Notes: a model not told the origin generated them from the sequence alone. Counted from the first letter of the stretch, positions 1,817 to 59,686 are shown. The stretch is DNA of 64,000 nucleotides from a virus (IMGVR_UViG_2724679285_000001:1782-65781); one strand, 5' to 3'. Numbers and translations: made by a program.

Positions 1817-1845
1817 CCCGCCGATAAGACCGGCTTATGTAAACC
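1817..1845. other. dif/XerCD-like recombination site (CCCGCCGATAA-gaccggc-TTATGTAAACC)
   Basis: 11-7-11 layout matching actinobacterial dif arms as recalled (GCCGATAA / TTATGTCAAG); the TAA stop of ORF 1835-2119 lies in the right arm. Confidence 0.7.
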
Positions 1846-2119
1846 TGGCTTCGGTTCGAACTAACCCTTTCGCGCGGAGGCAGGCGTCGCATCGGTCGGT
1901 CGGATGGCCGCCACAAGCGTGGATTTCCAGTGGCTCAAATCCGGCCGCCTCTGCTGCGGCGATCGCATAGAGATAGCCTTCCGCGAAAGCTTTCGACGCT
2001 TCACAGAACGGGCCGTCTTCGTGGCAGCAGCCAGCCTCGTTCATCTCGTGCCAATCCCCGATCAGGGAACGGCGGGCGTCGCGTACCGATGCTTTTGCCA
2101 GCTCAATGAAGCTACTCAT
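1835..2119 (-). CDS. hypothetical Cys/His-rich protein (cassette-borne)
   Basis: 94 aa ORF whose stop lies within the dif-like arm. Confidence 0.55.
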   Translation of the reverse strand: MSSFIELAKASVRDARRSLIGDWHEMNEAGCCHEDGPFCEASKAFAEGYLYAIAAAEAAGFEPLEIHACGGHPTDRCDACLRAKGLVRTEARFT

Positions 2120-2369
2120 AGGGGGCGTCGACCTCTTCTTTGGTCACGTCAATCTCTCCTTGTGTCAAGCTGGAATTAGGTGGGTAGTTTTGCTGCGGGC
2201 CCGGTCCAACGACCTCCACCTCTCCGAGTTCGCTCACTTCCGGAATGAAGGCGCGTACCACCCTGCGGAGGTAGTCACACGCCTGCTCGGCCATCTTCTG
2301 GCCTGGTGCGCTCACGCTGATGTACGTGCCGTCGCTCAGTTCCTGCTTGTACTGCCATACATTTGACAT
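2112..2369 (-). CDS. hypothetical protein (cassette-borne)
   Basis: 85 aa ORF overlapping the start of the next gene by 8 nt. Confidence 0.5.
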   Translation of the reverse strand: MSNVWQYKQELSDGTYISVSAPGQKMAEQACDYLRRVVRAFIPEVSELGEVEVVGPGPQQNYPPNSSLTQGEIDVTKEEVDAPYE

Positions 2370-2405
2370 CTGTAACTCCCGCAGCTTGTTTATCCGACAT
2401 CGGCG

Positions 2406-2765
2406 CTAAGGCAGCAGGGCCTGCACTGCTGCACGCGCTTTTCGGCGATGGATCAGTTGAGTGCGGTAGCTGAGTTCCCTCCATGACCACTTTTGCCCAG
2501 CTAGGTTTGAGTTGGCTATTGCCAGAGCGATCTGAATTTCAGTGCTCTCATCCATTGCAATTCCTTGCCCCGCTGATACGACACACTCGACATTCAGCGA
2601 TCCCAACTCGTCGCCAATCTCGTTCGAGTGCAGGATCAGGAAGTCATCACCGCCACCAAGAAGGATGTTGTTCACGAGCCAGGATTGCGACTGCGCATCG
2701 CCCGGGGGGTAGTGATCTGCGTCCACCTCCAAGACAGCGACAATCCGCAACCTTTGTTTGCTCAT
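2406..2765 (-). CDS. hypothetical protein (cassette-borne)
   Basis: 119 aa ORF with a strong RBS (AAAGGAAACAGAG-ATG) directly after the TTATCGGCG arm. Confidence 0.65.
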   Translation of the reverse strand: MSKQRLRIVAVLEVDADHYPPGDAQSQSWLVNNILLGGGDDFLILHSNEIGDELGSLNVECVVSAGQGIAMDESTEIQIALAIANSNLAGQKWSWRELSYRTQLIHRRKARAAVQALLP

Positions 2766-2776
2766 CTCTGTTTCCT

Positions 2777-2805
2777 TTCGCCGATAACCGAGCGGAACGT
2801 AACCC
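2777..2805. other. dif-like site with perfect left arm and degenerate right arm (TTCGCCGATAA-ccgagcg-GAACGTAACCC)
   Basis: Near-identical to 59617-59645; the right arm overlaps a -10 hexamer. Confidence 0.65.
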
Positions 2806-2847
2806 GGCGACCCGACATCGGCGTGGTTTCACGGCGTGGTTTCACGG
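2796..2847 (-). promoter_or_regulatory. PafBC/RecA-NDp-type promoter (TGTCGG-N10-TACGTT) with an upstream CGTGAAAC direct repeat
   Basis: Exact match to TGTCGG-N10-TA-N3-T; duplicated at 59636-59686. Confidence 0.65.
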
Positions 2848-2997
2848 GCTCGGTTCAGGCGCGCACACCGGAATTGAGCGCACTTTGGGGAGCAGGCAAA
2901 TCCTGCGCTCCGCTCAAAGTCGGGCGGCCACAGCGGGCGCACACCTCACCGCGCGGGACCACAACCGTTGTCAGATGCAGGCATCCCCACCGCGACA

Positions 2998-57434: not shown

Positions 57435-57437
57435 GGG

Positions 57438-58055
57438 TCAGAACTTCGGTACCGCGAACAGATCCACAGCCGTATCCCCGCTGACGTAGTTCGAGTTCGT
57501 GCCCTCCGAACCACCCGTAATCAACGCCGACTGCCACGCCTCCGACTGAAACCGCACCTCCACACGCACCGTGATCGACTGCCCGACCGCAACCTCCCAC
57601 CGGCCCGTCGACCCCGGCAACAACCGGTGCCGGCGCGAATTGTCCCGCACATCCGAAATCGCAAGCCCCGTATCGGTGGCCAGGAACCCGCCCTGCCCAA
57701 CATCCATCCCGGTCCCGAACTTGGACACCTCATCCGCGGCCGTCAACGTCGGCGCCGTCACACCCAGTTGGACGCCCTCACGCACAGTCAAAAACCCACG
57801 CGACCGGGCCTGCAACGACACCCGACACCCACCACGCCGCACCTCACCCCACACCAACTGCACAACCGGGGTGTCGTTCAGCCACGTCAACGTAATCGAC
57901 TGCAGCAGATCGTTCTTATTGCCCCCACCAGCCACCGCATACGAGCCCGACTTCGACTCCACCAACGCGGTAGCGACCCGAGACTGCTGCATCCACGGCA
58001 TCGGCTCGATAATCCCGTCCAGATCATCGAAATGCAGAGGCTCAACGCACGTCAC
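57438..58055 (-). CDS. minor tail protein
   Basis: Paralogous to the two upstream genes (W.N.TP..Q; V.R.). Confidence 0.6.
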   Translation of the reverse strand: MTCVEPLHFDDLDGIIEPMPWMQQSRVATALVESKSGSYAVAGGGNKNDLLQSITLTWLNDTPVVQLVWGEVRRGGCRVSLQARSRGFLTVREGVQLGVTAPTLTAADEVSKFGTGMDVGQGGFLATDTGLAISDVRDNSRRHRLLPGSTGRWEVAVGQSITVRVEVRFQSEAWQSALITGGSEGTNSNYVSGDTAVDLFAVPKF

Positions 58056-58657
58056 ACCACACCTCCCGGGGTCACGAACAGCAACAGCCGCGTCCAGTAG
58101 GCGTGGGCCTCATAGCGGGGATCATCATCAGGATCATCCGATGAGATCCATAGGCCCGGTGTGTGCGCCGCCGCCAAATACCGGAAATGCAGCGCCTCCC
58201 CTGGTGGGATCACCCCCACCGGGACCGTCACCTCAGACTCGTCGATCTCCAACGTGAACCGCCCGTACGCGAGATCCTTCGAAGCGGTCGACGCCTTGTT
58301 GGTTTGCATCTTCCCGCCCGCCGAATCCGCCGTAACCGACGGCGAATCAGCCTGCGGGGACGCGTTGATCACCCACGACCACGCGTCCTGAATCAGCACC
58401 GTACACGGATCGGTCGTCAGGATCGTGCGGGCCGCGCGTTTCACGATCACCGTGCCGGTCAACGGCTCGGTGCCACCGTTCGTCCAGTACAGGTCGCCGT
58501 CGATCATCGTCACCGGGTCCGGGGCCCGCTGAATCTCGCCGTCCTTGGTGGATTCGAGGAACACTTCATCGACGACACCGGGGAACCACGACTTCGCCAA
58601 ACCGGTCCCGTCGACAGTGGAGATCATGTGCGGCCCTGTGCACACTTTCATGCTCAT
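58052..58657 (-). CDS. minor tail protein
   Basis: Starts MSMKVCTG; member of the paralogous trio. Confidence 0.6.
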   Translation of the reverse strand: MSMKVCTGPHMISTVDGTGLAKSWFPGVVDEVFLESTKDGEIQRAPDPVTMIDGDLYWTNGGTEPLTGTVIVKRAARTILTTDPCTVLIQDAWSWVINASPQADSPSVTADSAGGKMQTNKASTASKDLAYGRFTLEIDESEVTVPVGVIPPGEALHFRYLAAAHTPGLWISSDDPDDDPRYEAHAYWTRLLLFVTPGGVV

Positions 58658-59292
58658 CCGGTCACCAACGATCCCTGCTGCGGCAGCGCCTCGACCTCGA
58701 CACGCGCATAATTCGCGCCGGCCCAGTGGTAGGGGCTGTTCTTGTTCGCGTTGTCCGACCACGGTTCTGGTGTCCAGACGATGCAGCGGTACCAGATGCG
58801 GAACGTCTCCCCCGGCTGGAGGAGTCGCGGCTGCAGTTCGGAGACGGTGGAGACGGGGTTCCACATCCACTGCTTGCCGGGCTTCGGCTCGGCCACACTG
58901 TTGGTGCCGAGGTCGATCGCGGAGCCGCATTTGGAGTTGTAGGTGGTGGTGCAGATCGGCACGGACGGTTGGTCGTCGACGGCGATGGTGTAGCGGTCCC
59001 GGAATTCGATGGCGTTGGGTTGCGACACCACCCATTTGCGGGGTCCGCGGGTCAGGTTGACGACCAGGGCTTGCGGGAGTGGGGTGTCGTTGCGCCATGA
59101 TGCCTGCAGGTTGAGCAGTTGGCGGCCGGGTAGCGGGATCTCGGCTTGAATCGGGCCGTCGGAGGAGGATCGGCATATCTCGTCGATCACCGGGCGTGGT
59201 ACGGAGTGTGGTTGGAGGTAGAGGGTTCCTTCGGTGGTGACGCCGAGGTTTTCGTCGACGCACACGTTGGTGGTGACCCAGTCCAGCGGCAT
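58654..59292 (-). CDS. minor tail protein
   Basis: 212 aa; member of the paralogous trio; late promoter upstream. Confidence 0.6.
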   Translation of the reverse strand: MPLDWVTTNVCVDENLGVTTEGTLYLQPHSVPRPVIDEICRSSSDGPIQAEIPLPGRQLLNLQASWRNDTPLPQALVVNLTRGPRKWVVSQPNAIEFRDRYTIAVDDQPSVPICTTTYNSKCGSAIDLGTNSVAEPKPGKQWMWNPVSTVSELQPRLLQPGETFRIWYRCIVWTPEPWSDNANKNSPYHWAGANYARVEVEALPQQGSLVTG

Positions 59293-59320
59293 GGCGGGAG
59301 GGTAACGAGGTCAGGTGAGA

Positions 59321-59349
59321 CAGGCCGAGAACACTGACTTATGTCGGCC
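59321..59349. other. dif-like site (CAGGCCGAGAA-cactgac-TTATGTCGGCC)
   Basis: 11-7-11 layout; TAA of ORF 59339-59605 lies in the right arm. Confidence 0.7.
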
Positions 59350-59605
59350 ATGGCAGCTTGAGGGTCATCCGATCAAGCATCACCGGATCGGTCATGTACG
59401 CCGGTACCCAGTCCTGCGCGTATCCGCAGTTATTCGGGCACATCCAGCCGTCTGCGGTTGCGATCAGGGTCGAGTGTGGTGTGCATTTACCGCAGGTAAA
59501 CGGGTGAATGTGCGCCTCGCGTTGGAAGCGGTTGATCACTGCCACCTGTTCAGGGGTCCAGGGTGCGTGAAGCGTCCGGCCCCAGCCTTCGGGTAGCTCG
59601 CTCAT
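59339..59605 (-). CDS. hypothetical zinc-binding protein (cassette-borne)
   Basis: APWT.EQV..IN.FQ....HPFTC...L.AT.DGW.C..C.Y.QDW; a non-structural-looking gene inside the tail operon. Confidence 0.7.
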   Translation of the reverse strand: MSELPEGWGRTLHAPWTPEQVAVINRFQREAHIHPFTCGKCTPHSTLIATADGWMCPNNCGYAQDWVPAYMTDPVMLDRMTLKLPWPT

Positions 59606-59616
59606 GGTTTCCTCTC

Positions 59617-59686
59617 CACGCCGATAACCGAGCGGAACGTAACCCGCAGACCCGACATGGCGGATGTTTCACGGCGTGGTTTCACG
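59617..59686 (-). promoter_or_regulatory. dif-like site (CACGCCGATAA-ccgagcg-GAACGTAACCC) overlapping a TGTCGG-N10-TACGTT promoter and CGTGAAAC x2
   Basis: ~70-bp near-duplicate of 2777-2847. Confidence 0.7.

Follow-up and report, generated by a model that had tools for sequence, protein, structure and literature searches.

Small gene cassettes bounded by dif-like boxes in a temperate mycobacterial phage

It has long been asked how phages come by their small orphan genes and trade them, and several known systems bear on the matter. Integrons gather promoterless single-gene cassettes into co-oriented arrays behind a promoter, by means of the integrase IntI with its adjacent attI site and Pc promoter and of the attC hairpins. 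Lambdoid morons are independently transcribed extra genes of lower guanine-plus-cytosine (GC) content that lie between essential late genes. Integrative mobile elements exploiting Xer (IMEX) use the host Xer recombinases and have no integrase of their own; some need one strand exchange and little spacer homology. Excerpts of one report describe how IMEX phages and elements, such as the CTX phage, integrate at dif through XerCD (PMC5357621). On Acinetobacter plasmids and chromosomes, pdif modules carry small genes, including toxin–antitoxin genes and genes of unknown function, bounded by sites that copy the arms of host dif, according to portions of two accounts (PMC12907356; PMC10132070). For T4-type phages, parts of two papers describe promoter early stem-loop (PeSL) elements, which combine a sigma-70 promoter with a terminator stem-loop and recombine by homology (PMC2839356; PMC4122927). 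The 64,000-nucleotide (nt) stretch analysed here, called the window (IMGVR_UViG_2724679285_000001), comprises bases 1782–65781 of a 65,781-base-pair (bp) virus record and carries small gene cassettes whose ends are marked by short boxes resembling the dif site of the bacterial host. This cassette architecture is well supported, and the system is rare and apparently undescribed.

Sites, boxes and promoter pads

Seven sites in the window match the pattern GCCGAKAA-N6/7-NNNNGT, which was defined after the sites had been seen. All lie on the + strand, against 0.49 matches expected by chance, and none of 100 shuffles reached seven; the seven co-oriented sites named in the original prediction are confirmed. 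Every one of the seven + strand copies of GCCGAKAA is inside a site; the opposite strand has four copies, all of them elsewhere. When both arms are required more strictly, with up to three mismatches allowed, three sites are recovered (0.02 expected) and no new one is added. Nearly all genes in the window are on the − strand, and the sites are therefore co-oriented with transcription. Arm spacing is 7 nt in six sites and 6 nt in one, and four sites have GAGAA instead of GATAA.

On the coding strand, the sites resolve into two boxes, a 5′ box TTATCGGCR and a 3′ box TTGACRTAAR. The opening sites (2777, 59617 and 29862) read TTATCGGCG and then a ribosome-binding site (RBS), and the closing joints (1817, 29621 and 59321, with 16442 as a variant) read T(T/G)ACATAA, 7 nt, TT(C/A)TCGGCG. 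Three pairs of sites had been predicted to bracket small open reading frames (ORFs). The bracketing holds, but the middle ORF is 29653–29850 rather than 29639–29872, and the first pair encloses three ORFs, listed below, rather than the single ORF 1835–2787. As predicted, the RBS directly follows the inner arm, 2–4 nt past TTATCGGCG in all three pairs, and the start codon stands 13 nt past the box in 3/3. The stop codon also lies where it was expected, in or 4 bp from the TTATGT arm: for two units the TAA is inside the TTGACATAA box, and for the third the TGA is 4 nt outside it. The three units (U1 to U3), a further unit with a 92-amino-acid (aa) ORF and their predicted promoter pads are made up as follows.

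1817–1845, − strand: U1 closing joint; 3′ box GGTTTACATAA, 7-nt spacer, box TTATCGGCG; the stop TAA of ORF 1835–2119 is in the 3′ box
1835–2765, − strand: U1 cargo; three ORFs, 2406–2765 (119 aa), 2112–2369 (85 aa) and 1835–2119 (94 aa)
2777–2805, − strand: U1 opening site; 5′ box TTATCGGCG at 2779–2787, then AA, RBS, ATG
2796–2846, − strand: U1 promoter pad; CGTGAAAC at 2826–2833 and 2839–2846, TGTCGG at 2812–2817, 10 nt, TACGTT at 2796–2801
16380–16884, − strand: two further pads; CGTGAAAC pairs at 16413/16425 and 16864/16876, each with an N10-spaced TACCTT promoter
16442–16469, − strand: variant closing joint of the 92-aa ORF; GTGACATAG, 6 nt, TTCTCGGCG
16478–16756, − strand: 92-aa ORF unit; phrog_13233 (function unknown), between the terminase gene and the phrog_928 gene
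29621–29649, − strand: U2 closing joint; GCTTGACATAA, GTCGGCG, TTCTCGGCG
29653–29850, − strand: U2 cargo; 65-aa ORF with stop TGA 4 nt outside the arm; GC 0.599
29862–29890, − strand: U2 opening site; linker CGCAACG, box TTATCGGCG, AA, RBS, ATG
59321–59349, − strand: U3 closing joint; GGCCGACATAA, GTCAGTG, TTCTCGGCC; the stop TAA of ORF 59339–59605 is in the 3′ box
59339–59605, − strand: U3 cargo; 88-aa Cys-rich protein
59617–59686, − strand: U3 opening site and pad; 90% copy of 2779–2846, including TGTCGG-N10-TACGTT and CGTGAAAC twice

The cassettes have a GC content of 0.55–0.60 (0.575 for the U1 cargo), compared with 0.653 for the window. Near the end of the second U1 ORF is CTTGACACAAG, a 3′ box relic with one mismatch. 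The U2 closing joint is the best dif mimic, and the linker and 5′ box of U2 recur in two other phage genomes (G006 and G687) and in a tandem joint from a metagenome (run X6), all described below. Degenerate CGTGACCC repeats lie ahead of U2. The variant joint at 16442 starts 8 nt past the stop codon of the 92-aa ORF, and an upstream partner is absent. Searches of Pfam, PHROGs and PADLOC gave no match for the five ORFs of U1–U3; Atlas returned nothing usable for the U1a ORF, and no relatives of the U1c protein were found in IMG/VR. The U3 protein has three close relatives (68–74% identity) and 30 distant phage ones (36–55%), and no boxes were found at any of the 30 distant loci. Past the U3 closing joint, window 59292–59320 holds a leaderless-type promoter, CAC-N10-TACCCT-6 nt-ATG, of a DUF7172 gene.

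Scans of the coding strand at the sites found neither a sigma-70 promoter (−35/−10 pair) nor an intrinsic terminator. The TTGACA of the 3′ box was considered as a sigma-70 −35 element and rejected, as no −10 stands at 16–18 nt and the scans found none. RNA folding of ten joints gave Z-scores of −1.6 to +1.6, with no common structure and an arm complementarity of only 4 nt. Structured RNA or an intrinsic terminator at the joints was rejected on the results of these scans and of folding.

Upstream of U1 and U3, window 2779–2846 and 59619–59686 form a 68-nt repeat with 90% identity. The identity begins exactly at CGCCGATAA, and the 5′ box, where the 2779/59619 repeat ends, is a mosaic breakpoint. 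On the coding strand, both pads read CGTGAAAC twice, TGTCG-GGT-8 nt-TACGTT, 8 nt and then TTATCGGCG. Excerpts of published work give the RecA-independent promoter consensus as tTGTCRgtg-8 nt-TAnnnT (PMC5656591) and state that this promoter, as read by PafBC, consists of a −26 element and a canonical −10 (PMC8635444). The putative promoters at 2796–2817 and 59636–59657 agree with this consensus, with no −35 element. As TACGTT would be the −10 of a PafBC-type promoter, the degenerate outer arm that had been assigned to two of the sites is best read as a −10 hexamer; at U1 this arm, GAACGTAACCC, overlaps TACGTT (2796–2801). The 5′ box falls at about +1 of the predicted promoters. Tandem CGTGAAAC copies with a period of 12–13 nt, on the coding strand only, stand upstream of all four predicted PafBC-type promoters (2826–2846, 16413–16432, 16864–16883 and 59666–59686), and the pads of the terminase locus flank its insert, the 92-aa unit, as direct repeats. 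Because two units directly adjoin PafBC-type promoter motifs, these two are probably expressed on DNA damage or induction.

Relatives, unrelated phages and host dif

Comparison of relatives supports the mobility of the cassettes. The search for empty sites that had been suggested succeeded at the U1 locus, which is empty in two relatives. The prophage G427 has structural genes that are syntenic with those of the window phage and ~70% identical, and at the U1 locus it has a 37-nt intergenic gap; in the window this interval is ~1.18 kb and consists of 150 nt, the pad, U1 and the closing joint. The 92-aa unit is likewise missing from G427 between the terminase and phrog_928 genes, although the leaderless-type promoter of the latter is kept, and the small ORF that G427 has in place of U3 is a different one, without boxes. 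The second relative is a 46.6-kb contig from a drinking-water metagenome (run X6), with ~93% identity to the window (over 7,097 bases of its longest piece there are 488 differences), in which 48 letters stand in place of window 1769–2918. The 1834–2121 gene and its 3′ box, 97.6% identical, are relocated on this contig between window 16436 and 16961. There the gene is joined to the 5′ element 2758–2788, a further copy of which adjoins the pad at 16821. The joint, 2788, 24 letters, 1834, amounts to two cassettes in tandem, and there are at least two cassettes at the terminase locus. The last of the 24 letters, read on the coding strand, are CCGCAAC, the linker before the 5′ box of U2, G006 and G687. 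In this one case, on one contig, the same module is found in a new context between the same sites. The 24-letter tandem joint recurs in a low-depth contig from a different study (run X4), and runs X5 and X7 gave only short near-identical contigs and spurious short-sided joints.

In 20-kb stretches of four syntenic relatives, ACATAAG has zero copies and the 5′ box occurs at chance numbers. Five ~65-kb relatives (~55% protein identity) were considered as box carriers and rejected, having single matches in unrelated sequence only. A 518-bp segment with a small ORF, window 10476–10993, is replaced by 9 letters in the X6 relative; it has no boxes, is followed by a GC-rich hairpin and is a second kind of insert.

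The same boxes recur in otherwise unrelated phages. G006, a 58,962-bp provirus, has a two-ORF unit with CGCAACG-TTATCGGCGAAAGGAAACAGAGATG at its opening and GGTTGACATAAG at its close, and the outer arms are degenerate; a 35-nt identity with the window begins at the 5′ box. G408, a second prophage in the same host genome as the window phage, has a 62-aa ORF opened by CGCCCAC-TTATCGGCA and closed by TTGACATAAG-ACGCCA-TTCTCGGCG. G687, a 43.6-kb mycobacteriophage-like contig with a DUF732 gene and an Rv2525c-like lysin domain, holds an array of ten co-oriented 5′ boxes between 8145 and 10476 (2.3 kb). At least nine small ORFs make up this array, seven of them opened by a 5′ box and six ending in AC(A/G)TAA. 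Its internal spacings are 9–10 nt, with linkers GCCCCCAGG (twice), ACCGCAAC(G/C) (twice) and TCCTCAGG, and its closing joint is CTTACGTAAG-GCGATC-TTCTCGGCG. A scan of 10 ORFs in the first 19 kb of G687 found no recombinase next to the array. Opening and internal 5′ boxes are all TTATCGGCR, and five of six closing boxes are TTCTCGGC(G/C) at 6–7 nt; the 5′ box stands 10–17 nt ahead of the start codon in 12 of 13 cases. The four box-bearing phages have no cargo in common and differ in their immunity regions, and the whole records G000, G006 and G408 have only scattered short matches in common. A Thr encoded by the 3′ box ends 9 of 18 unrelated cassette proteins, and the 3′ box is therefore conserved as DNA.

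Elsewhere, the boxes are scarce. In IMG/VR, full closing joints were found only in G408, besides three low-GC chance matches, and the 5′ element only in G006; among 185,579 species genomes the 5′ element was found only in the own host, and JGI metagenome contigs gave 0 matches. CGCAACGTTATCGGCG occurs in 16 stretches of IMG/VR, one in G006 and two in G687, and the other 13 lie in unrelated low-to-mid-GC contexts and were judged chance from their 50-nt flanks. A known actinophage motif was considered and rejected, as BLAST of the closing joint and 5′ element against 50,697 GenBank phages gave chance-level matches only (E ≥ 0.3). A search of the literature on mycobacteriophage dif/XerC and prophage dif-like cassettes did not find such a system described.

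At the level of sequence, the likeness of the phage boxes to host dif is real. The host, Mycolicibacterium canariasense, has a putative dif, GCCGATAA-GCCACA-TTATGTCAACT, as a single intergenic site with a 6-bp spacer. GCCGAKAA-N6/7-TTATGT is present in 282 of 401 host-family genomes, mostly once each, compared with five matches for a reversed control pattern, and 30 loci give the family consensus GCCGATAA-TCtACA-TTATGT(C/A)AA(G/C)T. The consensus TTATGT[C/A]AA[G/C]T agrees with the 3′ boxes of 29621, 1817, G408 and G006 at 9–10 of 11 positions, and the two phage boxes copy both host dif arms at 17–18 of ~19 positions. Both arms, GCCGA(T/G)AA and TTATGT(C/A)AA, agree with the putative host dif and with the family consensus. 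The actinobacterial dif arms given in the original prediction hold in the host and in the 282 genomes; the spacer is 6 bp in dif and 7 bp in the phage (6 in one site). The expectation in that prediction that joined cassette ends give a near-perfect dif mimic is borne out. Tyrosine-recombinase core sites have the same ATAA-spacer-TTAT arrangement of arms.

Dif-like sites with a 7-bp spacer also occur in the family genomes (22 in 18 of 401, against 2 control matches), and some flank islands. Many of them read TTGACATAAGG-N3-CCTTATCGGC. Two direct 7-bp-spacer sites 5.1 kb apart flank a chromosomal island in another member of the Mycobacteriaceae (G395:C12, L150), and direct 7-bp and 6-bp sites 8.2 kb apart flank another chromosomal island (G255:C34, L151) with two long ORFs, judged by eye to be type I restriction–modification genes. 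Pairs of 6-bp-spacer sites ~3 kb apart occur in G326:C37 and G350:C19, with identical spacers in both genomes, and several family genomes hold 4–8 dif-like sites. A 7-bp site in G371 was judged chance because it lies in seemingly ordinary coding sequence with no phage match.

How the cassettes may move

The phage, which was found on contigs of M. canariasense CCUG 47953, is temperate. It encodes a tyrosine integrase (44027–45373) and a Rha-type antirepressor, and its immunity region resembles those of phages Tortellini, Xavia and Mask. The record ends fall inside a long tape-measure-like ORF, which indicates that the record is a circular permutation. A host tRNA-Asn gene (locus L173, G007:C78) has at its 3′ end the same 39 bp as the attP core, 45454–45492, and TACGGGGAAAATACGGG repeats at ~45381 and ~45612 resemble arm-type sites. 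In the host assembly, the phage sequence is unbroken across attP and one attB copy stands empty, which means that some of the culture, at least, carried the phage in circular form. As the attP core corresponds to tRNA-Asn and the putative host dif is on another contig, the phage is not integrated at chromosomal dif. A small serine recombinase of the DNA invertase type (phrog_125) is encoded at 20580–21392 (−); no clear invertible segment was found near it, only weak inverted repeats. The integrase and this enzyme, both far from the sites, are the only recombinases identified among the scanned window ORFs. A RecE-like exonuclease (phrog_412) adjoins a 375-aa phrog_3657 protein (35376–37255, −), and the two are a possible RecET-type recombination pair. 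Directly upstream of the terminase gene is a HicA/HicB-like toxin–antitoxin pair (18516–19150, −), whose DNA is ~75–79% identical to pairs of several mycobacteriophages, and 31344–31898 matches a methyltransferase family.

Our leading explanation, held tentatively and at a little less than even confidence, is that the boxes are the ends of small accessory-gene cassettes, and that recombination at the boxes exchanges these among loci as well as among mycobacterial phages that are otherwise unrelated. A cassette would start with the 5′ box TTATCGGC(G/A) just ahead of the RBS and would typically end with the 3′ box T(T/G)AC(A/G)TAA(A/G), the TAA of which would usually be the stop codon. An array would be closed by a 3′ box followed by TTCTCGGCG at 7 nt, a composite that copies both host dif arms. 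The reaction would be of the tyrosine-recombinase type and borrowed from the host (XerCD or one of the two), with a single strand exchange adjoining an arm and no need for spacer homology. With exchange next to the 3′ box, a new cassette would bring its own linker and TTATCGGCR and would leave the old spacer and TTCTCGGCG at the end of the array; the layouts of G687, G408 and U2/U3 fit such a remnant. An Xer-type reaction would explain the copying of both dif arms, the ATAA/TTAT layout and the distinct 7-nt joint at array ends. The host genome encodes XerD (344 bits) and a close paralog (271 bits), and host XerCD is plausible as the enzyme.

A more specific version, integrase-less capture, is possible though on the unlikely side. 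Here the stop-codon and pre-RBS boxes of a circularised cassette would form a dif mimic, and host Xer would insert it one-sidedly at the array end behind the PafBC promoter. If this is true, the phage has swappable, induction-timed accessory genes and a counterpart of the integron run on host chromosome-resolution enzymes. The original prediction of an integron analogue with no integrase of its own stands in part. Cassettes with conserved inner ends are seen in the empty locus, the relocation and the ten-cassette array, and the 10 ORFs scanned beside the G687 array include no recombinase, but dif geometry is missing at most joints.

Several observations weigh against exchange at the boxes by Xer. 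Joint spacings vary, being 7 nt (6 once) at array ends, 9–10 nt inside the G687 array and 25 nt in the tandem joint of X6; dif geometry is thus missing from most of them. The fixed 6-bp central region of dif is not found in the phage, whose spacer is 7 bp (6 in one site) and GC-rich, and among the matches listed the once-per-genome dif type has a 6-bp spacer and GATAA, with no GAGAA. According to an excerpt of one study (10.1101/758037), recombination does not take place between mycobacterial dif variants whose central regions differ, and the partner sites here have unlike spacers; together these make a canonical XerCD reaction between the present partners unlikely. The 92-aa unit (16478–16756) has no 5′ box, and its break relative to X6 is at 16821, not at a box. 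The 5′ homology between U2 and the X6 joint extends ~24 nt upstream of the box. In X6, the promoter pad and a further 71 bases are also missing from the empty U1 locus, and G427 has only the 37-nt gap; the idea of a degenerate site in a promoter as a pre-existing landing pad at U1 is contradicted by both. The X6 evidence is one metagenome contig, with possible assembly errors at a 31–34-nt repeat that is as long as the assembler's word. Cassette circles had been proposed, but no circle junction was seen in the metagenome runs, and the sole backward joint, with 24 extra letters, is the tandem-array joint. Array-type joints in the 401 Mycobacterium genomes are not above chance (3 matches, 3 control matches), which makes the system rare. 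Finally, the phage encodes the RecE-like exonuclease with its neighbour gene and the small serine recombinase, and homology-driven exchange is for this reason the main rival.

According to that rival, which is possible though on the unlikely side, the cassettes do exist, but it is homologous or short-homology recombination between conserved ends (pad, 5′ leader and 3′ box) that shuffles them. The RecE-like system of the phage would act during co-infection or between co-resident prophages, and the dif likeness would have another cause or be a relic. The long conserved 5′ regions (the 68-nt pad repeat, and the ~24 nt, box and leader common to U2 and the X6 joint), the pads as direct repeats around the terminase-locus insert, the RecE-like gene with its neighbour and the presence of two box-bearing prophages in one host genome are consistent with this, and PeSL elements, as excerpted in PMC2839356, are a precedent. 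The empty U1 locus without a pad fits as well, since it indicates that pad and cassettes arrived or left together. However, homology does not explain why both host dif arms are copied at 17–18 of ~19 positions, nor the rule that distinguishes TTATCGGCR from TTCTCGGCG with a fixed 7-nt closing spacing in three phages, and the 3′ box, only ~10 nt, is short for such exchange. It is improbable that the boxes are instead expression signals or protein-binding sites and that the cassettes move by ordinary illegitimate recombination. The boxes might then be a roadblock or operator halting read-through from damage-inducible units into late genes, much as the stoperators of cluster A phages block read-through, or a translation signal ahead of the RBS. 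Such a role suits the strict orientation of the boxes, the place of the 5′ box before start codons and near the +1 of PafBC-type promoters, the position of closing joints between inserted units and essential late genes and the absence of an intrinsic terminator at the sites. Yet there is no known candidate binding protein, four phages that are otherwise unrelated and differ in immunity region carry the boxes, the joint RNAs show no structure, and box breakpoints and dif likeness go unexplained unless the bound protein is XerCD.

The phage encodes both a tyrosine integrase and a small serine recombinase, and the boxes could be targets of either, but we consider this very unlikely. The integrase has its own attP core of 39 bp of tRNA-Asn, unlike the boxes; the ATAA-spacer-TTAT layout, of the tyrosine-recombinase core type, also counts against this reading; and the 10 ORFs scanned in G687 include no recombinase. 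That the sites are chance similarities without shared function is hardly credible. There are just seven in the phage and the pattern was set after viewing them, but the shuffle controls and the recurrence of both boxes in G006, G408, G687 and run X6 argue strongly for more than coincidence.

Comparison with known systems

The joints are short and defined in sequence, and empty, occupied, relocated and arrayed states exist in nature, so the question of how phages trade small genes can be tested directly. If host Xer acts on exchange by the leading explanation, Xer-bounded modules extend from Acinetobacter plasmids to actinobacterial phages, accessory-gene expression is tied to the PafBC damage response, and mycobacterial genetics gains a natural cassette-exchange tool.

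The phage cassettes resemble pdif modules, as excerpted in the accounts cited above, in having differing central regions, rows that share sites, no dedicated recombinase and mobility deduced mainly from comparison. The pdif sites, in the portion of PMC12907356 concerned, have a 6-bp centre and alternate in orientation (C/D, D/C), whereas the phage sites are direct repeats with 7 to 10 nt or more. Flanking by sites in opposite orientation, which belongs to the pdif definition in that text, is not seen, as the seven sites and all boxes of the G687 array are direct. The phage system further differs in that the arms are split between the 3′ end of the cassette (stop codon) and its 5′ end (ahead of the RBS), and in its carrier, an actinobacterial tailed phage.

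As in integron cassettes, the site overlaps the gene end, the closing site differs from the internal ones, and the cargo is unrelated and mostly of unknown function. Unlike integrons, the phage system has no IntI-type integrase among the ORFs scanned (in the window and in the first 19 kb of G687), RNA folding gave no imperfect hairpin of the attC kind, its joints are ~28–32 bp, and its promoter pad is not a fixed platform, being absent from the empty locus. With PeSL elements, as far as the excerpts describe them, it has in common short conserved regulatory repeats around small orphan genes and insertion, deletion and replacement between close relatives; it differs in having no stem-loop and no −35/−10 pair in the joint, in a joint that copies dif and in pads of the PafBC promoter type. 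Unlike IMEX, which integrate whole genomes at chromosomal dif, the phage has its own integrase into tRNA-Asn, and its dif-like sites are internal. Morons are without shared site-like end boxes, which the phage cassettes have. The gain, loss and movement of these genes among related phages point to a cassette-exchange system that has so far gone undescribed in tailed phages.

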